Below are positions 1,596 to 19,271 of a DNA stretch of 24,000 nucleotides, piece after piece; position 1 is the stretch's first letter; the number at the start of each line of letters is the position of its first letter. The notes under the pieces are model-generated. The model was not told the DNA's origin. It saw only the letters and a list, made by a program, of their open reading frames with translations, and searched no databases. Source of the DNA: Acinetobacter lwoffii (GTDB lineage: Bacteria; Pseudomonadota; Gammaproteobacteria; Pseudomonadales; Moraxellaceae); the NCBI RefSeq assembly GCF_029024105.1, contig NZ_CP118963.1:384559-408558 (forward strand), in the 5' to 3' direction. A program made the position numbers and the translations under genes.

Positions 1596-3254
1596 ATGAA
1601 AATTATAATTTTTACGATTTTTCTTTGTTTTGCCTTATCTTATTTCATAGGCTTATCAGCACTCCCATGGACATCATCCTCGCAAGATTTTTTATGGTTT
1701 TTGGGTTTAATTTTATGTTTTTTTTTGTTTTATAAAAAAGAAGTTAAACTACCCAAAATTATTATTCCTCTTCTTTATATTTGTTTAATTCCTTTTATCC
1801 AATTTATATTTGGCCAGGTCTATTATTTTTCTACGGCTTTTTTTAGTTTTTGTTTTGTTTTTGGTTTTTTAGCGTCTCTTTTTTATGGTTATAACAGTCA
1901 TCAGTTAGCAGATCGAAATAAAATTATTCAATATATTGCATATTTTTTTACGATTATTGGTTTGATTAGTAGTTTATTCGCCATTGCGCAATGGCTTCAA
2001 ATCTCTCATCCTTATATCTTAAATTTAAGTCATAATCGGCCTTATGCAAACTTAGGGCAACCCAATCATTTAGCAACACTTTTAATGATGAGTATTTGCA
2101 GTGTGGTGTTTTTATATGAGCGGCATGAATATAAATGGTTCTTATGTGTGCTATTACTTGTTTTAGAAATTCATGCTCTTAGCCTGACGCAGTCTAGAAC
2201 GACATGGATTGTTATGATTGTCTTACTAGTTGTATATGTGTTAAAAAAAATAAATTTTCAAAGAACATCAACAGGAAAAATCATATTTTTATCGCTCGCA
2301 TTGTATGTGTTTCTTTTTATTTTTAATGCTGAAATTGCTGAATACTTAAAATTAGTTGCACCGATTCCTTTAGAAGATCGTATCAATAGTGGTTTTGCTC
2401 GTATTGAAATGTGGAAGCATATGATCTATGCCATCCAACAGCAACCTTGGTCGGGTTACGGTTGGTATCAAACTTCGATTGCTCAATTCGAGGGTGCACT
2501 TTTATTTCAAAATGAAGGCAATCTCTCAAGTGCACACAATATTATGATTGATTTAATACTATGGGTAGGCATTCCATTTGGTATTCTTTTGATTTTTTAT
2601 AGTTTGTACTTAATCAAGGTGATTATTTGTAATATTAAAACAACAGATGAACTTTATGTATTTATAATGATGCTATGTATATTGGTGCATGCTCAGCTTG
2701 AATATCCACTATATTATAGCTATTTCTTATTCCCTTTGGGGTTCTTTGTTGGAGTATTATTGATAAATTGCAATGTCAATACAATCTCAATCAATGAAAA
2801 ATTAAAGCAAGTAACTTTTTTATTTTCAATTATATTTTACGCTTTAATATTTCAACAATATGATCAATGGTTGACGAATCTGGGCTATGCATCAGGTATG
2901 GAAAATACAGGTCAATCACAAAATAAGCAATCAGTCATTTTTTCACAGTTTGCAGATCGAGCTGAGTTTATTGTTGCAAAAGTGGATAAACAGTATGCTG
3001 AAGACAAATTAGATTCATTTGAGCACTATGTAGTTAGTCAACCAAGCTACTATAATTTATTTAAAATGGCACAAATATTTTACTTTAATCAAGATTGGGT
3101 GAAAGCAAATTATTATTTTGAAGTATCGAATGCACTATATAATAAAAAGGCTTTATTCAAAGATTTATCAAAAATCGATACACACCAAAGTAATAATATT
3201 GCATCGCTATTTTTAAAAAAGCATGATGATCTATCAGCCCCAAACATGAAGTAA
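1596..3254 (+). CDS. Pilin-linked O-oligosaccharyltransferase, O-antigen-ligase (Wzy_C) superfamily (TfpO/PglS-like)
   Basis: 552-aa polytopic membrane protein. It shares QSRTTW, QPWSGYGWYQTS and SAHN motifs with the second OTase at 4084-5718 and has a TPR-like C-terminal tail. It lies immediately downstream of pilA and is markedly AT-rich. Confidence 0.75.
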   Translation: MKIIIFTIFLCFALSYFIGLSALPWTSSSQDFLWFLGLILCFFLFYKKEVKLPKIIIPLLYICLIPFIQFIFGQVYYFSTAFFSFCFVFGFLASLFYGYNSHQLADRNKIIQYIAYFFTIIGLISSLFAIAQWLQISHPYILNLSHNRPYANLGQPNHLATLLMMSICSVVFLYERHEYKWFLCVLLLVLEIHALSLTQSRTTWIVMIVLLVVYVLKKINFQRTSTGKIIFLSLALYVFLFIFNAEIAEYLKLVAPIPLEDRINSGFARIEMWKHMIYAIQQQPWSGYGWYQTSIAQFEGALLFQNEGNLSSAHNIMIDLILWVGIPFGILLIFYSLYLIKVIICNIKTTDELYVFIMMLCILVHAQLEYPLYYSYFLFPLGFFVGVLLINCNVNTISINEKLKQVTFLFSIIFYALIFQQYDQWLTNLGYASGMENTGQSQNKQSVIFSQFADRAEFIVAKVDKQYAEDKLDSFEHYVVSQPSYYNLFKMAQIFYFNQDWVKANYYFEVSNALYNKKALFKDLSKIDTHQSNNIASLFLKKHDDLSAPNMK

Positions 3255-3260
3255 TTGGTT

Positions 3261-3992
3261 ATGACAAAGCGTATTCAGTTTTTTATCAAGCATCTAACGT
3301 TATCCTTTATCATTGCCCTAGTGGTGCTTGGGGTTGTTTTTTACTGTTGGTACCCTACACCACTTGCAAAAGCTGTTGGTGTAACTTATATCATTTTAAT
3401 GTTATTTGCTATTGATATTATTGTTGGACCTTTATTAGGTTTATTGGTTTATAAAGAACATAAAAAAACCTTAAAATTTGATTTGACTGTCATTATTTTG
3501 ATCCAGATTTCGGCTTTAATGTATGGTATTTATAGTTTGGAGCAGGGGCGACCAGCTTGGATTGTTTATAATGTAGACCGTTTTGAGCTTGTGCGTAAAA
3601 ATGAAATCATCAATGAACATATTGAAAAGGCACAGCCACAGTACAAACAGCCCTCATTATTAAAACCTCAATATGTGATGGTCGAGGTGGCTACAGATAT
3701 TCAAAAGCGTCAAGCCGATTTATTTACGGAAGTGCTTGGAGGAGTGTCATTATCACAAATGCCAGATCGTTATATTGAATTTGATAATAAAGCACTTGTG
3801 CAAGGTAAAAATATTTTGAATATTAGAAAACTTTATGAGTACAATGAGGCATTAAGTGTTCGTAAAATTTTAGACGACTCACCTACAGCAGTAGGATTTG
3901 TACCACTAAAGGCAAGTCAAATAGATATGACGGTACTGCTTGATGCACAGGGTAAACCACTTGCAATCGTCGACCTTCGCCCGTGGAACTAA
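3261..3992 (+). CDS. TfpX/TfpZ-family type IV pilin accessory membrane protein
   Basis: N-terminal region FYCWYPTPLAKAVGVTYIILMLFAIDIIVGPLLGLLVYKEHKKTLKFDL...GRPAWIVYNVDRFELVR matches my recollection of Pseudomonas TfpX/TfpZ proteins. An alternative TTG start at 3255 abuts the upstream stop. Confidence 0.6.
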   Translation: MTKRIQFFIKHLTLSFIIALVVLGVVFYCWYPTPLAKAVGVTYIILMLFAIDIIVGPLLGLLVYKEHKKTLKFDLTVIILIQISALMYGIYSLEQGRPAWIVYNVDRFELVRKNEIINEHIEKAQPQYKQPSLLKPQYVMVEVATDIQKRQADLFTEVLGGVSLSQMPDRYIEFDNKALVQGKNILNIRKLYEYNEALSVRKILDDSPTAVGFVPLKASQIDMTVLLDAQGKPLAIVDLRPWN

Positions 3993-4014
3993 CTTGTATT
4001 TGAAAGATCAAAAC

Positions 4015-4045
4015 AAAAAGCAGATTCCCCTTTAATCTGCTTTTT
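4015..4045 (+). terminator. Rho-independent terminator after the TfpZ-like gene
   Basis: 12-bp stem AAAAAGCAGATT / AATCTGCTTTTT, 7-nt loop, T-run. Confidence 0.75.
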
Positions 4046-4083
4046 GTTTATCATGTGCCAAACTTCTACCGCTTGATATTTCC

Positions 4084-5718
4084 ATGAAATTTATGCTCGC
4101 TCTAATAGCAGCAATCCTCATTTCCCTTGCATGGCTCATGCCCATTCATTATCGGCCTTGGGTGACATATACGGGTGAGCTATATGCCTTTTTTGCACTA
4201 TTTGCTTTAGCTGCAATTTGCCTCAAAGAAAAACTCAAAATTCCAGCTCTCAGTCTGCCATTATTGCTACTCGCCTGTGTACCACTGATACATTTTCTGA
4301 CAGGACAGGTATTTTTCTTTAGCACTGCCATGATGGGCTTTATTTTTGTTTTTAGCTTTTGGCTGGCAAGTGTACTTGGCTATAATTTTTCTAGAGGAAA
4401 CAATAGCCGAGAAGAAACCTTTACCCATTTAAGCTATGTATTCTTGGTGTCAGGCACCATTACAGGCTTAATTGCTCTATGTCAGTGGATAAATCTGGAT
4501 TCAGTCTTGGTAGGCATGGTGAATATCAGTGGTACTCAACGTCCCTATGCCAATTTTGCCCAGCCAAATAATATGGCGACGTTTTTACTTATGTCGCTGA
4601 TGAGTTGCCTATATCTTTATGAAAAGAAAAAGATTCAAACAAAGTGGTTAATGACTTGCGCATTATCGATCATTATGGGCATCGCGCTTAGCCAATCCCG
4701 TACCTCGTGGGTAGCTGCCATAGCCATCATGATTTATCTTGCCATTTATCAATATAAAGGCATTATTCGCCTGAAATGGTATTACAGCATCGCTTGGTTC
4801 ATTTTCTTTATTGCATGTATTGTGGCCTTTCCTTTACTCAGTCAGTTGGCTGCACAGGCGATGAATACGGACATCGTACAAAGCAGGGATGTGGTATCTC
4901 GTGCTACCGGAGATATGTCACGACTCGCCATCTGGCAGCAGATGCTGGCCGCAATTCAGGCGCAGCCATGGTTTGGCTATGGCTGGTATCAGACCAGTGT
5001 GGCTTTTGTCTCGATCAGCGATACCATACAAGGCCCAGTTTGGATTCGAAGTGCGCATAATTTTATTCTGGACTTTTTGCTCTGGAATGGACTGATCATC
5101 GGTCTGCCTTTCTTGGCCTACTTTGGTTATTTGGGCTATCAGTTGCAACGCTGGGTCAATACGCCAGAGTCTGTCATTGGAATTTTGATGATTGGAGCAT
5201 TTGTCACACATGCCATGTTTGAGTTTCCACAGCATTATGCCTATTTCCTGCTGCCAGTCGGTTTTATTCTGGGTACGGTTCTGGCACAAAATCCAAAAAT
5301 TAAAACAGTGGTTATGCCATCAATCGGCATGCAATTCACTTTTGCTGTTGGGTTACTTCTATTGATTGTGATTTATCGGGATTATGACGTTGCAGTACCA
5401 AAACTCGGACAAAGTATTCGTTATGAAAAGCAGCAGGAAAAAATCACCAATGAAAAACCGATCTATCTGCTGACCGAGTTTAATCATCGCATTGGCTGGA
5501 TTCGTTTAAATCCTTATAGCAAAGCGTCTGTTGAACAGATTCAGGAAGGTGAACAAATGGTCTTGAGCTATCCAACCAAATATAACCTGATCAAATATGC
5601 CAAACTCTTAGCTTTTAATGGCTACGAGGCTGAGGCCAAGCATCAGCTGCAACGCTTAAAGACCATTCAGAAAACTGAAATGAGTTATGAGGAATTAACG
5701 CAGGATATGTCTCGCTAA
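4084..5718 (+). CDS. pglL: General protein O-oligosaccharyltransferase PglL-like (O-antigen ligase/Wzy_C family)
   Basis: 544-aa polytopic protein. Motifs: PIHYRPW N-terminal motif, SQSRTSW, QPWFGYGWYQTS, RSAHN. The position between pilA and bfr matches the A. baumannii PglL locus as I recall it. Confidence 0.75.
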   Translation: MKFMLALIAAILISLAWLMPIHYRPWVTYTGELYAFFALFALAAICLKEKLKIPALSLPLLLLACVPLIHFLTGQVFFFSTAMMGFIFVFSFWLASVLGYNFSRGNNSREETFTHLSYVFLVSGTITGLIALCQWINLDSVLVGMVNISGTQRPYANFAQPNNMATFLLMSLMSCLYLYEKKKIQTKWLMTCALSIIMGIALSQSRTSWVAAIAIMIYLAIYQYKGIIRLKWYYSIAWFIFFIACIVAFPLLSQLAAQAMNTDIVQSRDVVSRATGDMSRLAIWQQMLAAIQAQPWFGYGWYQTSVAFVSISDTIQGPVWIRSAHNFILDFLLWNGLIIGLPFLAYFGYLGYQLQRWVNTPESVIGILMIGAFVTHAMFEFPQHYAYFLLPVGFILGTVLAQNPKIKTVVMPSIGMQFTFAVGLLLLIVIYRDYDVAVPKLGQSIRYEKQQEKITNEKPIYLLTEFNHRIGWIRLNPYSKASVEQIQEGEQMVLSYPTKYNLIKYAKLLAFNGYEAEAKHQLQRLKTIQKTEMSYEELTQDMSR

Positions 5719-5768: not shown

Positions 5769-6233
5769 TTAGAGCTGACTTTGAATATAGTTTTCAATGC
5801 CAATGCTTTCGATCAAATCAATTTGTGTTGTGGTCCAGTCCAGATAGTTTTCTTCTTTCTCTAGGATTTCCTGAACCAGATCACGCGTCACATAATCCAT
5901 TTGGGTTTCAGCCAATGCCACTGCTTTCTGGATGGCTTCAATATTCTCTTTGACTTTGCGTACATCACAATGCAGCACTTCTTGAGTATACTGACCAATA
6001 TACAGTTTGCCCAGATTTTGTAAATTCGGCAGACCTTCCAAAAATAAAATACGTTCAATAATTTTATCGGCATGTTTCATCTGAACAATGGATTCTTTAT
6101 ATTCTGCCGAGCCCAGTTTCTCAATGCCCCAGTCATTAAACATGCGCGAATGCAGGAAATACTGGTTAATGGCAGTTAAGTGGTGATACAACACCTGATT
6201 GAGCTGATTAATCACATCACGATTGCCTTTCAT
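5769..6233 (-). CDS. bfr: Bacterioferritin subunit (heme-ligand Met52 present, ferroxidase ligands substituted)
   Basis: 154 aa, gapless by-eye alignment to E. coli Bfr (AINQYFLH.RMF, MKHAD, ERILFLEGLPNLQ.LGKL, DW). GGAG SD 8 nt upstream of the ATG. Confidence 0.92.
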   Translation of the reverse strand: MKGNRDVINQLNQVLYHHLTAINQYFLHSRMFNDWGIEKLGSAEYKESIVQMKHADKIIERILFLEGLPNLQNLGKLYIGQYTQEVLHCDVRKVKENIEAIQKAVALAETQMDYVTRDLVQEILEKEENYLDWTTTQIDLIESIGIENYIQSQL

Positions 6234-6339
6234 CGCATAACTCCATTTGGACCTGTTTTATCTTTCTAAGAAAGCGCTCTAATCCTGATAGTAAAGCAAG
6301 TCAGGGGCAAATGGCGAGTAATTTATCAAATCAAACGTA

Positions 6340-7597
6340 AAACCTCGTTTTCAAGGCAGGGATATAAATGAGTGACCTAAGCCATACGACATGAAATGTC
6401 GTTTCAAATTAACATTTTTAACTTTGGATATTCTATTGGTTATTTTCATTGATAAAATAATCGCATGAAAACACTTAAATTACGCATTAAAGATAAACAT
6501 TCCAAGATATTAGAGCAATTAGCATCTGAAGTGAATTTCGTCTGGAATTATGTCAATGATTTAAGCTTTAAACACCTTAAAAGAAAAGGTGAATTTCTCA
6601 GTGCTTACGATATTGCTGAATATACGAAAGGTACATCTAGGCTTTGTGGGTTACATAGTCAAACCATTCAGGCTGTTACCGAAGAATTAGTCATACGCAG
6701 AAAGCAATTCAAGAAGACTAAACTAAAATGGCGGGTCAGTCATAAGAAATCAGCCAGAAGATCACTAGGTTGGATACCCTTTAAGAAAGTAGCAATCAAG
6801 TATGCTGATGGCCATATCCAGTATGGCAAGCATCAGTTTAAAATATGGGATAGCTATGGACTGTCAAATTACAGTATCAAGACTGGTTCGTTTGTCGAGG
6901 ATGCGCGTGGCCGCTGGTATGTCTGCTTAGTTGTGAATAGCTCTAAAATTGAGAAATCGAGTGCGACTAATTTGATTGGGATTGATCTGGGCTTAAAGGA
7001 TATAGCCACTTGTTCGGATGGTACGATAATTTCAAATCCCAAGTTCTACCGTCAATATGAACAGAAATTAGGGATTGCTCAACGAGCGAAAAATAGAAAA
7101 CGGGTCCGTGCATTACACGCCAAGATTGCAAACTGTCGTAAAGACCATTTGCACAAAGCAAGTACGATGCTTATAAAGAAAAATGCACTAATTGTTGTAG
7201 GCGATCTGAGTGCGAAAAAACTGGTGAAAACCAAGATGGCGAAGTCTGTTCTGGATACCGGATTTTCAGCATTCAAGACCATGCTCAAGTATAAATGCGA
7301 GAACGCAGGAGTATGGTTTGAAGAAGTTAGTGAAAGTTTCACAACCCAAATGTGTTCGTGCTGTGGCGAGGTCACTGCAAGCAGTCCGAAAGGTAGAACA
7401 GATTTGCGAATAAGAGTATGGGAATGTGAAAACTGTTCAAGTGTTCTGGATCGGGACTTGAATAGTGCTAAGAACATACTTGCGCTTGGGCATAAGCGTC
7501 TCGCAGGAGGAATCAGCTCTATTTAAAGAGGTGAGGATGTCAAGGAACAGCAAATGAAAATCGACATCGAATCCATTCAGACTCAGATGAATGGCAA
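6340..7597 (+). mobile_element. IS200/IS605-family element carrying tnpB only (IS1341-like); ends approximate
   Basis: tnpB is flanked by perfect 7-bp hairpins (6386-6402 and 7573-7594). It fills an otherwise unexplained 1.45-kb gap between bfd and bfr. No tnpA is present. Exact LE/RE junctions are not determinable from this window. Confidence 0.45.
6465..7526 (+). CDS. tnpB: TnpB/OrfB-family RNA-guided nuclease-like protein (IS200/IS605 accessory protein)
   Basis: 353 aa. RuvC-I IGIDLG (D174), zinc ribbon CSCC...CENC, RuvC-III LDRDLNSAKNI. The canonical RuvC-II xEDL position reads VVGDL (G246). Confidence 0.85.
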   Translation: MKTLKLRIKDKHSKILEQLASEVNFVWNYVNDLSFKHLKRKGEFLSAYDIAEYTKGTSRLCGLHSQTIQAVTEELVIRRKQFKKTKLKWRVSHKKSARRSLGWIPFKKVAIKYADGHIQYGKHQFKIWDSYGLSNYSIKTGSFVEDARGRWYVCLVVNSSKIEKSSATNLIGIDLGLKDIATCSDGTIISNPKFYRQYEQKLGIAQRAKNRKRVRALHAKIANCRKDHLHKASTMLIKKNALIVVGDLSAKKLVKTKMAKSVLDTGFSAFKTMLKYKCENAGVWFEEVSESFTTQMCSCCGEVTASSPKGRTDLRIRVWECENCSSVLDRDLNSAKNILALGHKRLAGGISSI

Positions 7598-7624
7598 TAA
7601 AAACCCGCCAGAGTCAAAGGCGGG
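7598..7624 (-). terminator. Rho-independent terminator downstream of bfd (minus strand)
   Basis: The minus strand reads CCCGCC-TTTGACTCT-GGCGGG followed by TTTTTATT. It lies 65 nt past the bfd stop. Confidence 0.6.
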
Positions 7625-7688
7625 GGAGGAGTAATGACCAAAGATCATTGTTTTTTCATTATGCTTATAGGGAGAAATCTTTTTAAAT

Positions 7689-7883
7689 TTATGCTGCAAC
7701 TGCTAGCCGTGCTGCAATTTGTGAAACCTCATCACTGATGATCATGCGGGCTTCTGGTGCACAGCGACCACAGCAAGTTCCCAAGTCCAACATATCGCGG
7801 ACATCACGATAACTTTCAGCGCCATTTGCAATAGCATCTTTAATGTCTTGATCTGTAATGCCGCGGCATAGACAAACGTACAT
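7689..7883 (-). CDS. bfd: Bacterioferritin-associated ferredoxin, BFD-like [2Fe-2S] protein
   Basis: MYVCLCRGITDQDI...GTCCGRCAP carries the C-x-C...C-x-x-C cluster ligands and resembles E. coli Bfd (MYVCLCNGISD). The track start at 7892 is a TTG extension. Confidence 0.88.
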   Translation of the reverse strand: MYVCLCRGITDQDIKDAIANGAESYRDVRDMLDLGTCCGRCAPEARMIISDEVSQIAARLAVAA

Positions 7884-7919
7884 AGGACACAACCACAGTG
7901 ATTAAATAAGATAAGTAAT

Positions 7920-7938
7920 ATTATTGATAATTGTTATC
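7920..7938 (-). promoter_or_regulatory. Fur box in the bfd promoter region
   Basis: ATTATTGATAATTGTTATC matches 14/19 positions of GATAATGATAATCATTATC, with the palindromic core GATAA-N3-TTATC. It lies 37-55 nt upstream of the bfd ATG. bfd is Fur-repressed in E. coli and Pseudomonas. Confidence 0.65.
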
Positions 7939-8103
7939 GTTTGTCAATAAAAATCATTTGAAATAGCTTTTATCATGATTGATGATTTAGATAAAAAATC
8001 ACCACCTGAGCGGAAATCCAAGTACTGCTCGGATTTCCACACAAAAGCGATTCATGATTTAGAATGAGATATTGCAGGGTGGGGATTGAGTAATTTTTAT
8101 AAC

Positions 8104-14043: not shown

Positions 14044-14983
14044 GCGATATACCTCAGGTTTCACCCTCATGGAGTTGATGATTGCTTTAGCATTAGGATT
14101 GTTAATTGTTGCCGCAGGTTTGGCTGTGTTTTTGAGTAGTCAGCGTTCTTTGGGTTTACAGTCTGGCATGAGTGAGTTGCAGCAAAATGCTAACTTTGGA
14201 ATGTCGCTCGTTACACATGATTTGAGACATACCAATTTAAATACTGCCTCTTCACATAGGGTGAATAATTATAACAATGGTTCGGGGATTATTTTTAAAA
14301 AAGAAAATCTACCAACTGCATTGCAAGCAACACCTAATTTAGAAGCTGAATTTGTTACTTTGCAAAATAAGGATACTGACAACACTACTGGGACAAGTGA
14401 TCGGTTAACTATACAATATGTCCCTGCAAGCAGTGAGATTTTTAATTGTGAAGGCGTACAGGTGACGAATGCGTCCTCGAAAACCATTGTGCAACGTTAT
14501 TATGTGGCAGAAAGTCCACAACAAGTACCGGGTGAGCCGACCTCGTACTCGCTGTATTGTGATGCTGCTTCTTATGATGGTGCAGGGCTAGTCGGTTTAA
14601 ATACCAATGCACAACAAATTATGCAGCGGGTCGATGCGTTTAAAGTACGCTTAGGGGTAAAAAATCCTGCGGGTCAGTTACGGTATATGACGATTAATGA
14701 ATATATTACTGCGATGGAGACAATCCGTGCAGCTTGTGCCACCCCAATAGTTGAAGATACCTGTTCAAAAACCTATTTGAATGTTGTTTCTATGGAGATT
14801 GGTATTCTGTCTCGGTCTACAGGAACAATTGGGGCAGATGCAAATTTAAATACTCAAACCAGCTTTAATGTTGCTGGAACTCCAGTCACGCTTTCAGGGG
14901 ATGTAGCAGTAAATAAGCGATATTTGCGTCAGGCGGTAAATCAAGTGGTCGCCATTCGTAATACCTTGGGAGCATCATCATGA
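14033..14983 (+). CDS. pilW: Type IV pilus assembly minor pilin PilW
   Basis: MAHKRYTSG|FTLMELMIALALGLLIVAAG. GGAGG SD at 14019-14023. It overlaps the pilV end by 11 nt. The track start at 13916 is an extension inside pilV. Confidence 0.8.
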   Translation: MAHKRYTSGFTLMELMIALALGLLIVAAGLAVFLSSQRSLGLQSGMSELQQNANFGMSLVTHDLRHTNLNTASSHRVNNYNNGSGIIFKKENLPTALQATPNLEAEFVTLQNKDTDNTTGTSDRLTIQYVPASSEIFNCEGVQVTNASSKTIVQRYYVAESPQQVPGEPTSYSLYCDAASYDGAGLVGLNTNAQQIMQRVDAFKVRLGVKNPAGQLRYMTINEYITAMETIRAACATPIVEDTCSKTYLNVVSMEIGILSRSTGTIGADANLNTQTSFNVAGTPVTLSGDVAVNKRYLRQAVNQVVAIRNTLGASS

Positions 14984-15666
14984 AACAACAAAAAGGTGCA
15001 ACACTCATTACGGTATTGGTCATTTTGATCGTTATCACATTACTGGGGACTATAGCGGTAAAAATGGGGATTGTGGGCTTAAAAATTGCAACTAATAGTC
15101 AGGTGAATGCGTTGTTGTTAGAAAACTCCGATTCAGCGTTGTTTAATATTGAAAACCCTGCTGAGGTTGAAAGACAATTGGCTCTGGATGGTATGTTTGC
15201 TTATTTTAACTCGTCTGCCAATACAAATGACGAATTGGTATTTTGCTATCGCGCATCGGAAAATTCTTTCTTTAAATTATCTAAAGCTAGCGCGATTACA
15301 GAGGATGGATCAACGACCAAGATTGGTGTTGATGGCTTTTGTAAAGCCAATCAATTTGCAATGGGGCGTTCTGCAGTGTTGTCACAAGTGTATTTAACCA
15401 AAAATGCAACAACCTCTACACCATTTGGTGGTGTGCCAAAAGGAACAAGTCTTGGACAAAGTCATGTGCCGGTAACCATGCATAATATCGGCGCGACTGT
15501 CATTTCAGTCTTACCAGGTTTTGCAGGTGCGACTACTACGCAAATAGAGAACTGTTTTAAGCAGCGGGCTTCGGCCGTGGGGGCATGTTTTGATGGGTTA
15601 GGTATTCCCTATAACATGCAGCATTCGGACTATACCGTTGGCGGTCAGCCGAAGCTGGTATCGTAA
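14980..15666 (+). CDS. pilX: Type IV pilus minor pilin PilX
   Basis: MKQQKGATLITVLVILIVITLLG is a PilX_N-type N-terminus. ATGA overlap with the pilW stop. Confidence 0.75.
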   Translation: MKQQKGATLITVLVILIVITLLGTIAVKMGIVGLKIATNSQVNALLLENSDSALFNIENPAEVERQLALDGMFAYFNSSANTNDELVFCYRASENSFFKLSKASAITEDGSTTKIGVDGFCKANQFAMGRSAVLSQVYLTKNATTSTPFGGVPKGTSLGQSHVPVTMHNIGATVISVLPGFAGATTTQIENCFKQRASAVGACFDGLGIPYNMQHSDYTVGGQPKLVS

Positions 15667-15683: not shown

Positions 15684-18600
15684 ATGGATAAAATAAATCA
15701 TAAAAATACGCTTTCAGCTGCGGTGTCAATGTTCATGACTCTAGCTGTATGTTACAGCGTGTCTGCACAAGCTAGTGATATTGATATTTATAGTAATACG
15801 ACTAGTGGCAAAACCACGATTACCATGATGCTCGATACATCAGGTAGTATGGGTAATGGTCTTTTTTATTATAGTACATTTTTCGGAATTTTTACTGGAT
15901 CTCATTCCACAAATAGTTTACAGGAAGATTATGGAGTTTGTGTGAATGCAAATTCCACTAGATATGAAAGTAATTCGAATATCCGTACAGAGGTGAAAAC
16001 TGTTACATTATCGGATAACACGACTGTTAATTACACAAGATATTATTGTAGGGTAAGAAATTCATCATCGGAATATACAAGACTAAAAGATAAGGGTGTT
16101 TGTACCGAGTCAGGCACTGAACTGCGATGTTTCGACCGGTTAACTCGATTAAAAGATGCTTTGATTGAAGTATTTCAAGATGCTGAAATTAAAGATAATA
16201 ATATTCTTATTGGATTGGGGCAGTATTCTAGTTCAACTTCAAGTATTGAAACCTCAAGTAATGCTGATGGAAGTACTGGACGAATTCTAGTTGCAGCAAA
16301 GCCGATGGATAATACGCATAGTGATAATTTAATTAAGGCTATTGTCAATTTATCCCCATATGGTGGTACACCTACAGCCCATGCTTATGCTGAGATTGGT
16401 GCATATATGTTAGGTAGGACAACTAAAGGCAGTAGTGAGAATGCTGGTAGTGGTTTTGATAAATCTAATACTACAGATATAAAGCAAGACAATAAATATA
16501 AATCACCGTTTGGCACAACTCTACCTTCCCCAACAGACACATGTAATGGTCAAGGTATTTATTTCTTGACTGATGGTGCACCCAACAGTTCGAATAATTC
16601 ATCTAAATTAATGAGACGAGCATTAGGTCTTAGTAGTGATTTTTCTGATTCAGGTGGGTTGCCTAATGGAAGTGAAGATAATAATCAAATGAGTTATGTG
16701 GGAGCGTTCGCTAAAAAAATACGGTCTGATTACAATATAAAAACTGCAGTAGTAGGTTTTGGTAAAGATTTTATTGTTAATGAAAATACTCTTAAACTAT
16801 TAGAAGATCCACTAACAAAGAAAATTAAGCCTTATTATGACTGTTCTCAGTTATCTGGAGATGCTAAAAATGCTTGTAACTGGGGAGCTAAACAACATGC
16901 TCAATTACCTAGTAACGTAGGTGGTTTTGGTAACGGTGGTTTTTATTCTGCTCAATCTACCCAAGATATTATAGATAGTATTAAATATTTCGTGGATGAT
17001 ACTAAACCTCCCTTTGACCCTGTTGCAACAGGTTCACCGACTTTACCGCAAGATGCTTTAAATCCATTACGCATTCAGCCTTATGGTTATTACGCTTCAT
17101 TTTTGCCGAAACCGCAGGAATCGACCCAGCTTTGGGTTGGGAATATGAATAAATATCATATTTTTAACGGCGAACTATATAATGCAAGCAAAACTATTCG
17201 CTTAATTAAGTCAGATGGTTCGCTTGACGCAGCCGCCAAAGGGCTTTGGACCGACGAGGGCATGAAAGGACAATTGCCTTTGGGTTTAAGCACCAATGGC
17301 GCAAATGAAAAAATTGCCAACCGTACTCTTTATACCAATCGGGAAATTACAGGTACTGCGGCTCCGTATGCAGCAAGTGAAATCGGTTCACTGAAAAAAG
17401 TCAATGTGACGACTTTATTTGGTACGGGCACTACAGCGTTATTTGCCAATGACCCAGATAAAAACTATTGGTTGAACCTGCTCGGCTATAATGTTGCCAC
17501 CACAGGTATAGTCACTTTAGCAGATCTTGCGACCAAACCTGAACTGCGTCAGGTCGGTTCGGTTATGCACTCCACTCCTATTTTGCTCACCCAGTCAGGT
17601 AAAATTTCATACACTTCTGGCACTATTGACACCACTGATCGTGACGATTACTTATTATTCGGTAGTACACAAGGATTATTGCATGTCGTACGGGCAGGCA
17701 AAAATGCAACTGATGCAAATCGTGGTAAAGAGGTTTTTGCCTTTGCGCCAAACGAAATGATGCAAAATCAAAAGAATGCTTTTCTATCTGAAACCAGTAC
17801 TACCTTGGGCAAAAATAACCTGTTCTACGGTATAGATGCACCGTGGACGGCTTATACCCAGTATGTTGCAAAAGCAGATGGAACATTGACCGTTAACGAC
17901 TCAGGTCGTGTTGCACAAAATGCCAGTGGTGATGATATTGCCATTAAAGGTTTGCAGTGGGTCTATGGTGGTTTGCGTATGGGAGGCAAAAGTTATTACG
18001 CTTTGAATTTATCTGACTTAGATAATCCAGAGCTCAAATTTCACATCGACCCAGCCAACTCAAAAATTTATAAATCAAGTTCCACAACTACAGGTGTAAC
18101 CGCTCTAAGCTATATGGGACAAAGCTGGTCTAAACCGACCATTGCTTATGTGAATTTTGGTGGGGTCAAGAAACTGGTCATGTTTGTGGGTGGGGGTTAT
18201 GACCCTGGTTATGAAGATGCGGCTTATGACCAAAATACTACAACAGGCGGCGGTGCGGGCGTATATATGTTTGATGCCAATAATGGCGACTTGCTTTGGT
18301 GGACCAGTGCCAATGCAACAGCAGCAGGTGGTGCAGAAGCCTATACCAATGTCAGTGCAACGAGCATTAACATGAAATATAGTGTAGTCAGTCAGATCAA
18401 TGCCATTGACCGTGATAGCGACGGTTTGGTCGACAACTTATACTTTGGTGACTTAGGTGGACAAGGTTTCCGTGTCGACTTAAATAATGCAGCAACAGGT
18501 ACGACCGCAAGTGCTAAAAAAGCGAATTTTGCTAAACGTGTTGTACGCTTATTTGATGAACATGCAACAGGTGGGGCAAGCCCTCGCTTCTATGAAATGC

Positions 18601-19271
18601 CAAGTGTGTCTATACATGACAGCGATGATGGCTATGTTGCTGCCGTTGCGTTTAGCTCAGGTAATCGCAGTTCACCATTGGTTGGGGCGGCTGGCACGAA
18701 TCAGGCGGGTTCAGCAACCAGTGCAGTAGATGGCGTATTTGTGGCTTATGATAAAGACGTTGCAAAAATGGATCTTTATGGTACGCCAACATTAACCACC
18801 CGGACTGCGCTGTCTTCCTTAAACAGTAACATGAGTACAGGTGTTGCAATTAATGGAAATAGCGGTTGGAAATATACCTATTCAAGTACTGCAGGTGCTT
18901 ATAAAGGAATGAATGAGCTATATGCCTTAGATGGTATGTTGTATGTCAATGTGTTTCATCGTGATGGTACAGGTATTGGTGGTTCGTGTGGTGCAGGTGT
19001 CAAAGGTGACAGCTATGTCTATCAGTTCTGTTTGCCTACAGGAAAATGTCCATTTAATACAACCACATCTGGGGTGCCGAATAGCGTAAAACTTGGTGCG
19101 GGTATTTTGGGTGCTGGTTTAGGTCAAGGACGTAGTAGTGCCAATAATACTGGGTTGATTGTAAACCGCCCTAACACGCTCAATTGTACCACTAGCCCAA
19201 ATTTACCTGAATGTCAGGAGTTTACCACCACAGCGAAACTTAGACAGTTACGTTGGTATGAAACTCGTTAA
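15684..19271 (+). CDS. pilY1: PilY1/PilC-family type IV pilus tip adhesin (N-terminal vWA domain, C-terminal beta-propeller)
   Basis: Signal peptide ...SVSAQA|SD. vWA MIDAS residues LDTSGSM / GGTPT / FLTDGAPN. C-terminal PilY1 domain with the Ca-binding loop DRDSDGLVD (18408-18434). 1195 aa. Confidence 0.88.
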   Translation: MDKINHKNTLSAAVSMFMTLAVCYSVSAQASDIDIYSNTTSGKTTITMMLDTSGSMGNGLFYYSTFFGIFTGSHSTNSLQEDYGVCVNANSTRYESNSNIRTEVKTVTLSDNTTVNYTRYYCRVRNSSSEYTRLKDKGVCTESGTELRCFDRLTRLKDALIEVFQDAEIKDNNILIGLGQYSSSTSSIETSSNADGSTGRILVAAKPMDNTHSDNLIKAIVNLSPYGGTPTAHAYAEIGAYMLGRTTKGSSENAGSGFDKSNTTDIKQDNKYKSPFGTTLPSPTDTCNGQGIYFLTDGAPNSSNNSSKLMRRALGLSSDFSDSGGLPNGSEDNNQMSYVGAFAKKIRSDYNIKTAVVGFGKDFIVNENTLKLLEDPLTKKIKPYYDCSQLSGDAKNACNWGAKQHAQLPSNVGGFGNGGFYSAQSTQDIIDSIKYFVDDTKPPFDPVATGSPTLPQDALNPLRIQPYGYYASFLPKPQESTQLWVGNMNKYHIFNGELYNASKTIRLIKSDGSLDAAAKGLWTDEGMKGQLPLGLSTNGANEKIANRTLYTNREITGTAAPYAASEIGSLKKVNVTTLFGTGTTALFANDPDKNYWLNLLGYNVATTGIVTLADLATKPELRQVGSVMHSTPILLTQSGKISYTSGTIDTTDRDDYLLFGSTQGLLHVVRAGKNATDANRGKEVFAFAPNEMMQNQKNAFLSETSTTLGKNNLFYGIDAPWTAYTQYVAKADGTLTVNDSGRVAQNASGDDIAIKGLQWVYGGLRMGGKSYYALNLSDLDNPELKFHIDPANSKIYKSSSTTTGVTALSYMGQSWSKPTIAYVNFGGVKKLVMFVGGGYDPGYEDAAYDQNTTTGGGAGVYMFDANNGDLLWWTSANATAAGGAEAYTNVSATSINMKYSVVSQINAIDRDSDGLVDNLYFGDLGGQGFRVDLNNAATGTTASAKKANFAKRVVRLFDEHATGGASPRFYEMPSVSIHDSDDGYVAAVAFSSGNRSSPLVGAAGTNQAGSATSAVDGVFVAYDKDVAKMDLYGTPTLTTRTALSSLNSNMSTGVAINGNSGWKYTYSSTAGAYKGMNELYALDGMLYVNVFHRDGTGIGGSCGAGVKGDSYVYQFCLPTGKCPFNTTTSGVPNSVKLGAGILGAGLGQGRSSANNTGLIVNRPNTLNCTTSPNLPECQEFTTTAKLRQLRWYETR

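Follow-up and report, generated by a model that had tools for sequence, protein, structure and literature searches.

A stretch of 24,000 nucleotides of the Acinetobacter lwoffii chromosome (contig NZ_CP118963.1, positions 384,559 to 408,558; hereafter the window) was found to carry a tnpB-only element of the IS200/IS605 family between the genes bfd and bfr. The element spans 1,217 bp (positions 6327-7543 of the window, + strand, as are all of its features below) and has no target-site duplication. It very probably encodes a RuvC-II-rearranged, "TnpB2"-like TnpB of the Ealt type, i.e., an RNA-guided DNA endonuclease with a glycine at the canonical position of the RuvC-II glutamate and a predicted catalytic glutamate further downstream. 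From the evidence presented here we infer the cleavage activity of the protein, the ends of its guide RNA (omega RNA) and its role in homing.

The tnpB open reading frame (ORF; 6465-7526) starts with ATG, ends with a stop codon at 7524-7526, and encodes a protein of 353 amino acids. Translation placed the RuvC-I motif IGIDLG at residues 171-176 (D174 codon, 6984-6986), a zinc ribbon at CSCC 297-300 and CENC 321-324 (C297/C300/C321/C324; 7353-7436), and the RuvC-III motif LDRDLNSAKNI at residues 328-338, with D329 and D331 (D331 codon, 7455-7457). The position of the canonical RuvC-II glutamate is taken by G246, encoded by GGC at 7200-7202. The ORF itself and every residue and coordinate named in a first-pass annotation made from the sequence by eye were confirmed. 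By profile membership, the protein is a clear TnpB: it scored 242 bits with NCBIfam NF040570 guided_TnpB (cutoff 100), 52.3 with Pfam PF01385 OrfB_IS605 (cutoff 30.5), and 76.7 with Pfam PF07282 Cas12f1-like_TNB (cutoff 26.3).

The glycine rests on more than an alignment by eye. The first-pass annotation had matched VVGDL with the xEDL of typical TnpBs, and this match was borne out: HMMER comparison with the solved ISDra2 TnpB (8bf8/8exa/8h1j) paired D174 with D191, G246 with E278, and D331 with D361, and a 62-sequence family profile compared with ISDra2, an artificial intelligence-designed TnpB and LaTranC gave the same pairing. Residues were counted by column over 77 sequences, using a panel of 75 full-length proteins drawn from an exhaustive phmmer search to represent clusters at 50% identity; a separate curated alignment comprised 62 homologs with 34-86% identity to the window protein. 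The G246 column held glycine in 74 of the 77 family sequences, and the motif [LI][IV][VI]G[DN]L was found in 119 of the 120 nearest clusters in the database (identity of 81% or more). The codon GGC is two substitutions away from GAA or GAG, and a sequencing error at codon 246, already doubted in the first-pass annotation, was ruled out because glycine is also present in 13 orthologs and in those 74 representatives. In the curated alignment, D174, G176, G246, E290, C300, C321, C324, R330, D331 and N333 were invariant, while the D-E-D triad and the cysteines C297/C300/C321/C324 were each invariant or at least 90% conserved. Judged from these alignments, glycine at RuvC-II is a family trait. Its presence is the norm here and gives no indication that the enzyme is dead.

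The first-pass annotation had proposed that the catalytic glutamate might be supplied from another position, with E279, E286/E287 and E290 as candidates. The rearrangement is supported and the predicted alternative catalytic residue is E290 (codon 7332-7334), while the remaining candidates are not conserved: the E290 column held glutamate in 73 of the 77 family sequences, compared with 7/77 for E279, 11/77 for E286 and 37/77 for E287. E290 lies 44 residues downstream of G246, and in the motif E290-SFTTQM-C297SCC300 six residues separate it from the first CxxC. When residues 280-342 were compared by phmmer with the solved chain of ApmFanzor2 (9b0l), E290 paired with Glu467 and D331 with Asp501; ISDra2, in turn, carries glutamate at the G246 column and proline at the E290 column. 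An AlphaFold2 model built on the 62-sequence alignment (predicted local distance difference test score 91.9) displayed the strand order of RNase H, with beta-1 at 169-175, beta-4 at 240-246 and beta-5 at 284-288. In this model, E290 lies two residues past beta-5, beside beta-4 and beta-1 in the RNase H strand order. The best structural matches of the model were the ternary complexes of the ISFba1 and ISDra2 TnpBs and of Fanzor2. The active site is therefore modeled as D174 (beta-1), E290 and D331 (start of the C-terminal helix), with G246 filling the vacated canonical position at the end of beta-4; we hold this assignment jointly with the reading of the whole element, and consider the two together highly likely.

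Such a rearrangement has been described before. In RIIr-5, the largest rearranged clade, the RuvC-II glutamate is replaced by glycine and another glutamate compensates (Altae-Tran et al. 2023; PMC10691335). Jiang et al. (2023; PMC10530073) reported an alternative conserved glutamate ~45 residues downstream in Fanzors and in "TnpB2", found the E467A mutant of ApmFanzor to be dead, and showed that the rearranged TvTnpB cleaves DNA in a manner dependent on a target-adjacent motif (TAM). By cryo-electron microscopy, the metal-binding triad of ApmFanzor2 is Asp324/Glu467/Asp501 (PMC11832414). Yoon et al. (2023; PMC10711439) defined Ealt as a glutamate six residues before the zinc-finger CxxC, and distinguished two clades among Ealt proteins, D-Phi-G and DPG (pro-Fanzor/Fanzor).

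The RuvC-II-rearranged TnpBs (RIIr-5, PMC10691335; "TnpB2", PMC10530073; the Ealt D-Phi-G clade, PMC10711439) have in common with the window protein the glycine at the canonical position and the glutamate ~45 residues downstream (44 here), as well as E-x6-CxxC, D-L-G at RuvC-I, DRDxN at RuvC-III, a C4 zinc ribbon, association with a Y1 TnpA, and mobility; assignment to RIIr-5 is by signature only, and the spacers of the window protein fall slightly outside the published expression. By description, the system resembles the experimentally active TvTnpB of Thermoplasma volcanium (PMC10530073), which is encoded by an IS605 element whose family includes a TnpA partner, and has an alternative glutamate (E323) and a guide RNA derived from the right end. 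TvTnpB differs in being archaeal and thermophilic, and in its TAM, NTGAC rather than TTTAT. The Fanzor2 of Acanthamoeba polyphaga mimivirus (PDB 9B0L; PMC11832414) was the third-best structural match to the model (template modeling score, TM, 0.70), at an identity of ~20%, and differs in having DPG at RuvC-I, an N-terminal extension and a nuclear localization signal, and an IS607 or eukaryotic-virus context. The DPG of pro-Fanzors and Fanzors at RuvC-I is D174-L-G176 in the window protein, and in place of their IS607 serine-recombinase TnpA the family has a Y1 partner (PF01797). With ISDra2 TnpB (PDB 8EXA/8H1J), the window protein shares the architecture of WED, REC, RuvC and zinc finger (TM 0.75), and the element shares an omega RNA overlapping the 3' end of the ORF, a TAM at the left flank and a guide at the right flank; ISDra2 differs by its Glu278 at the end of beta-4, its proline at the E290 position, and its TAM, TTGAT as opposed to TTTAT.

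The limits of the element were set by homology among paralogs and by empty sites. Across ~60 paralogous copies from Acinetobacter genomes, homology begins near 6322 and stops abruptly at 7543 (...GAGGATGTCAA), 17 nt past the tnpB stop codon. Metagenome contigs were searched for empty sites using a pattern of left flank, a gap of 0-12 nt, and right flank. Sixteen contigs contained the exact empty site GGCGAGTAA-TTTAT-GGAACAGCAAATG, all in syntenic bfr-bfd regions of other Acinetobacter lineages, and the sequence that follows TTTAT in these alleles is exactly the one that follows the right end of the element in the window. TTTAT (6322-6326), which lies outside the element on its left flank, is thus both the target motif, as read from the empty sites (GGCGAGTAA-TTTAT-GGAACAGC), and the predicted TAM. 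Of 37 independent family insertions, 33 have TTTAT directly before the left end and two have ATTAT there. The first-pass description of tnpB as solo is true for the window, yet the gene does not stand alone as an accessory: it is cargo of a precisely delimitable IS200/IS605 element.

Both ends of the element can be recognized. The left end (6327-6464) opens with 16 nt ending in AAAA (6339-6342), a candidate left guide tetranucleotide, followed by a subterminal hairpin region (6343-6361). Alignment of the left ends of paralogs revealed 7-bp subterminal stems with compensatory changes, and DNA folding placed the family hairpin at the expected position in two paralogous copies, one of them linked to TnpA, at -7.7 and -8.4 kcal/mol. 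At the right end, the element closes with the cleavage tetranucleotide TCAA (7540-7543), which all 33 aligned copies share without exception and past which their sequences are unrelated. It is preceded by a terminal stem-loop (7513-7534), identified by covariation, with the stop codon in its loop, GAAT 5' of its foot and 10 nt to the cleavage point; this stem-loop probably doubles as the right-end subterminal palindrome. This hairpin is present in the window copy, with one G-G mismatch.

Members of the family occur in several copies per genome (2-5 in the 80 loci kept); Logan assembly contigs that end within tnpB likewise suggest a repeat, but were left out of the evidence. In seven family loci, a divergently oriented Y1 transposase (PF01797, E=1e-45 to 1e-47) lies directly upstream of tnpB; these transposases were located by a crude motif heuristic and then confirmed by Pfam and tblastn. 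Since a Y1 TnpA is present in these seven related loci and absent from this copy and from the window, the window copy is non-autonomous. The organization resembles that of IS608 of Helicobacter pylori (PMC3201880), which also uses a Y1 TnpA, inserts 3' of a short T-rich motif without duplication, ends in TCAA 10 nt past a subterminal hairpin, and has a 4-nt guide 5' of each hairpin. IS608 differs in its target, TTAC, compared with TTTAT (last four TTAT) here; in AAAG, compared with AAAA, 5' of the left hairpin; in the distance of that hairpin from the cleavage site, 19 nt compared with 16 nt; and in that tnpA is missing from the window copy. By analogy, TTAT with AAAA may be read as a matched change relative to TTAC with AAAG in IS608. 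Among the plasmid matches H1-H15, related elements (67-79% nucleotide identity) were also found on plasmids of Acinetobacter and Moraxella osloensis, and weaker matches occur on Klebsiella, Pseudomonas and Shewanella plasmids; plasmids are plausible vehicles for the spread of the family.

The right end is also predicted to encode the omega RNA, whose scaffold (7346-7543) would overlap the 3' end of tnpB and the right end of the element. An alignment of the 3'-terminal 220 nt from 33 copies (redundancy removed at 95%) revealed stretches of nucleotides conserved beyond the requirement of the protein. RNAalifold predicted 41 pairs in these copies, 10 of which show compensatory double changes. Of all cells, 97.2% were paired, compared with 32-44% when partners were slid by 1-3 columns; the covariation score was 0.262, compared with 0.03-0.05 for slid partners, and none of 500 column shuffles reached the observed score. 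The terminal stem-loop is the helix richest in covariation, with both sides changing in 5/5 counted pairs. Because it is probably also the right-end palindrome bound by TnpA, its covariation may partly reflect a constraint on DNA besides that on RNA. The window copy breaks two of the 41 pairs, and other copies break 0-5. A scan of the whole window against Rfam at gathering thresholds gave no match, and a permissive scan of 6250-7700 gave chance matches only; curated families therefore do not cover this omega RNA, which also differs from RAGATH-18, the scaffold used by ISFba1 (the best structural match of the model).

A likeness between two sites in this region was also observed. In many family copies (L028, L032, L033, L037-L044 and others; locus ~4856-4866), the codons for E-E-V-N just before the alternative glutamate read GAGGAAGTCAA, which matches the right-end terminus GAGGATGTCAA in 10 of 11 positions, at a distance of ~211-220 nt upstream; at the corresponding positions, 7320-7330, the window has GAAGAAGTTAG. 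The likeness could be a coincidence under coding constraint, or could be related to processing of the omega-RNA 5' end.

The boundary between scaffold and guide is sharp: homology among copies stops exactly at ...GTCAA. The first flanking bases past the right end, GGAACAGCAAATGAAAATCG (7544-7563), are the predicted guide and target, with the guide length assumed to be ~16-20 nt, and the same 20-mer directly follows TTTAT in the empty alleles. The only close match to this guide in the window adjoins the right end and is preceded by GTCAA rather than a TAM, and hence the ribonucleoprotein has no licensed target in cis within the window.

Herein, we describe how the element may maintain itself. 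The 3' ~200 nt of the element would be transcribed to an omega RNA, whose scaffold would end in ...GTCAA (7543) and whose guide would be the flanking GGAACAGCAAATGAAAATCG. By analogy with canonical TnpB, the Y1 TnpA of an autonomous relative may excise the element, whereupon the donor joint TTTAT/GGAACAGC... would be re-formed. This joint would then be recognized as TAM and target and cut by TnpB, and recombinational repair would restore the element. An incoming empty allele would be cut likewise.

The gene is under purifying selection. The ratio of nonsynonymous to synonymous substitution rates (dN/dS) of the window gene relative to its paralogs was 0.06-0.10. The copy between bfr and bfd was found in all 13 A. 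lwoffii-type genomes retrieved, with 97-100% protein identity. These 13 orthologs showed 31 synonymous and 25 nonsynonymous variant states, while 79% are expected to be nonsynonymous under neutrality (binomial p=2e-8). They have diverged up to a dS of 0.066 and contain no stops or frameshifts; D174, G246, E290, D331 and the four cysteines are unchanged. The sister lineage L096 (right flank 95.6% identical) has the empty site, and the window copy appears to be fixed at one locus in A. lwoffii.

Several observations weigh against an active, mobile system. No tnpA was found in the window, as the first-pass annotation had noted: tblastn with the Y1 TnpA of the family gave chance matches only (E>=0.95). 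The left-end hairpin (6343-6361) is degenerate in the window copy and does not form in the DNA fold of lowest energy (-2.6 kcal/mol), which suggests that this copy is poorly mobilisable by TnpA; fixation at one locus in the 13 genomes likewise makes its present mobility doubtful. The terminal omega-RNA stem of the window copy contains one mismatch, and a promoter scan upstream of tnpB gave no convincing sigma-70 site. The published Ealt expression, D{P}G-x(120,160)-E-x6-CxxC-x(12,18)-CxxC-x(4,8)-D (PMC10711439), was not matched when applied strictly, as the spacers are 113 from DxG to E (not 120-160) and 20 between the CxxC pairs (not 12-18). After this failure on two spacer lengths, the Ealt assignment relied on the core E-x6-CxxC; as both the core and the motif order are present, the expression is a search heuristic too narrow for this TnpB family. 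Finally, no cleavage assay of the window protein or of any close relative was found in the literature. ISAba30, an Acinetobacter TnpB that has been tested, was considered and set aside: it was chosen in published work for its canonical glutamate and so provides no evidence for the Gly246 family. Some of these observations would suit an inert relic, i.e., an open ORF whose protein and omega RNA are functionless, in a fixed insertion awaiting decay. This explanation would draw on the lack of TnpA in the window, the degenerate left-end hairpin, the missing promoter match and the single mismatches in two omega-RNA helices, yet it is improbable given that 13 orthologs have kept every catalytic and zinc-binding residue in an uninterrupted frame with a significant deficit of nonsynonymous change, and that the omega-RNA scaffold is preserved to the same degree as elsewhere in the family.

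The missing canonical glutamate had also led the first-pass annotation to consider a dead repressor of the TldR type, namely an exapted TnpB that would use its guide RNA to bind DNA and repress a neighboring promoter, such as that of bfr. Like TldRs, the window protein is a TnpB homolog that lacks this glutamate and resides at a fixed chromosomal locus beside a conserved promoter region; the copy is fixed between bfd and bfr in A. lwoffii while still under purifying selection, its left-end hairpin is degenerate, and it is inserted inside a deeply conserved motif upstream of bfr. Unlike TldRs, however, the protein keeps a complete alternative D-E-D triad, an intact zinc ribbon and an untruncated C-terminus with a full-length RuvC-III helix, both transposon ends are present, and the window offers no TAM-flanked guide target, its sole match being preceded by GTCAA. 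The triad and the four cysteines are under purifying selection, and the whole family, including TnpA-linked and plainly mobile copies, has the same glycine and an invariant glutamate at a validated alternative position. This proposal is therefore not supported, and we regard it as very unlikely. Even less credible is an active site completed by E279, E286 or E287 in place of E290. None of the three is more than 11 residues away from E290; they fall on or close to beta-5 and the helix before it, and E287 is the majority residue at its own column; against this stand the column counts given above (7/77, 11/77 and 37/77, compared with 73/77), the invariance of E290 alone in the curated alignment, and the alignment of E290 alone with Glu467 of Fanzor2. 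We thus favor a catalytic Ealt TnpB whose copy in the window is probably hard to mobilise, with its protein and RNA still maintained. Such maintenance fits the known function of TnpB, namely retention of its own element, and leaves a small opening for early domestication. That an immobilised but catalytic Ealt TnpB-omega-RNA unit is kept for a role at the level of the host or the locus is a speculative, rather unlikely variant. If so, one candidate role would be the destruction, during natural transformation, of incoming empty bfd-bfr alleles of other Acinetobacter, which carry the exact TTTAT and 20-nt target; another would be a rewired expression of bfr, as the element splits a deeply conserved promoter-like motif.

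The genes flanking the element are both on the - strand: bfr (bacterioferritin; 5769-6233, Pfam Ferritin), the left neighbor, whose upstream region took the insertion, and bfd (bacterioferritin-associated ferredoxin; 7689-7892, Pfam Fer2_BFD), the right neighbor. The motif split by the insertion, GGCGAGTAA-TTTAT-GGAACAGCAAATGAAAATCG (window 6313-6326 and 7544-7576), is exactly conserved in the bfd-bfr intergenic region of other lineages (L094-L109), whose flanking genes are ~74-85% identical, though the search required an exact 27-mer, which biases the finds. On the strand in the sense of bfr, it reads TTGCGA-N17-ATAAAT in most species and resembles a sigma-70 promoter. Since the element now parts ATAAAT from the rest of this motif, regulation of bfr in A. 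lwoffii may be altered. A GC-rich hairpin (cccgcc...ggcggg, 7613-7640), followed by a T-run on the minus strand, probably acts as the intrinsic terminator of bfd; if so, bfr would depend on a separate promoter within the region disrupted by the element. Upstream of bfd, a Fur-box-like sequence, gataagtaatattattgataattgttatc (7910-7947), overlaps a strong promoter match on the minus strand (TTGACA-16-AATAAT), consistent with iron-regulated bfd.

The other ORFs of the window are housekeeping genes: pilins, PglL, bfr, bfd, ridA, spoT, gmk, ispH, rimM, trmD and rplS. At 1596-5718, two O-oligosaccharyltransferase genes of the PglL/Wzy_C type flank a FimB-like gene beside a pilin gene. The left flank of the element is 85% identical to L096, compared with 95.6% for the right flank; the difference points to a hypervariable region of pilin glycosylation whose recombination breakpoint lies at or close to the element. 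In the type IV minor-pilin cluster, an ORF of 1,195 amino acids (15684-19271) lies between PilW-like and N_methyl/ComP-like genes, without a Pfam match at E<=1e-5, and probably encodes a divergent tip adhesin of the PilY1 type. The ORF of 228 amino acids that precedes it (14980-15666) also has no Pfam match at that threshold.

In 2023, glycine at RuvC-II with a compensating downstream glutamate was already published as the hallmark of a TnpB clade that ranks among the largest (PMC10691335, PMC10530073, PMC10711439). A glycine at the textbook RuvC-II position does not mean that a TnpB is dead or exapted, and screens for TldR-like regulators should check the E-x6-CxxC position before inactivation is called. 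The locus represents a fully specified, compact (353 amino acids) and mesophilic Ealt TnpB system, with a predicted TAM (TTTAT) and a scaffold boundary, and with both a 20-nt target and empty sites that occur in nature. Published data point to a lack of collateral cleavage of single-stranded DNA by Ealt enzymes (PMC10530073). In addition, it provides a natural case of a species-fixed, tnpB-only copy under selection in a conserved promoter region of iron storage.

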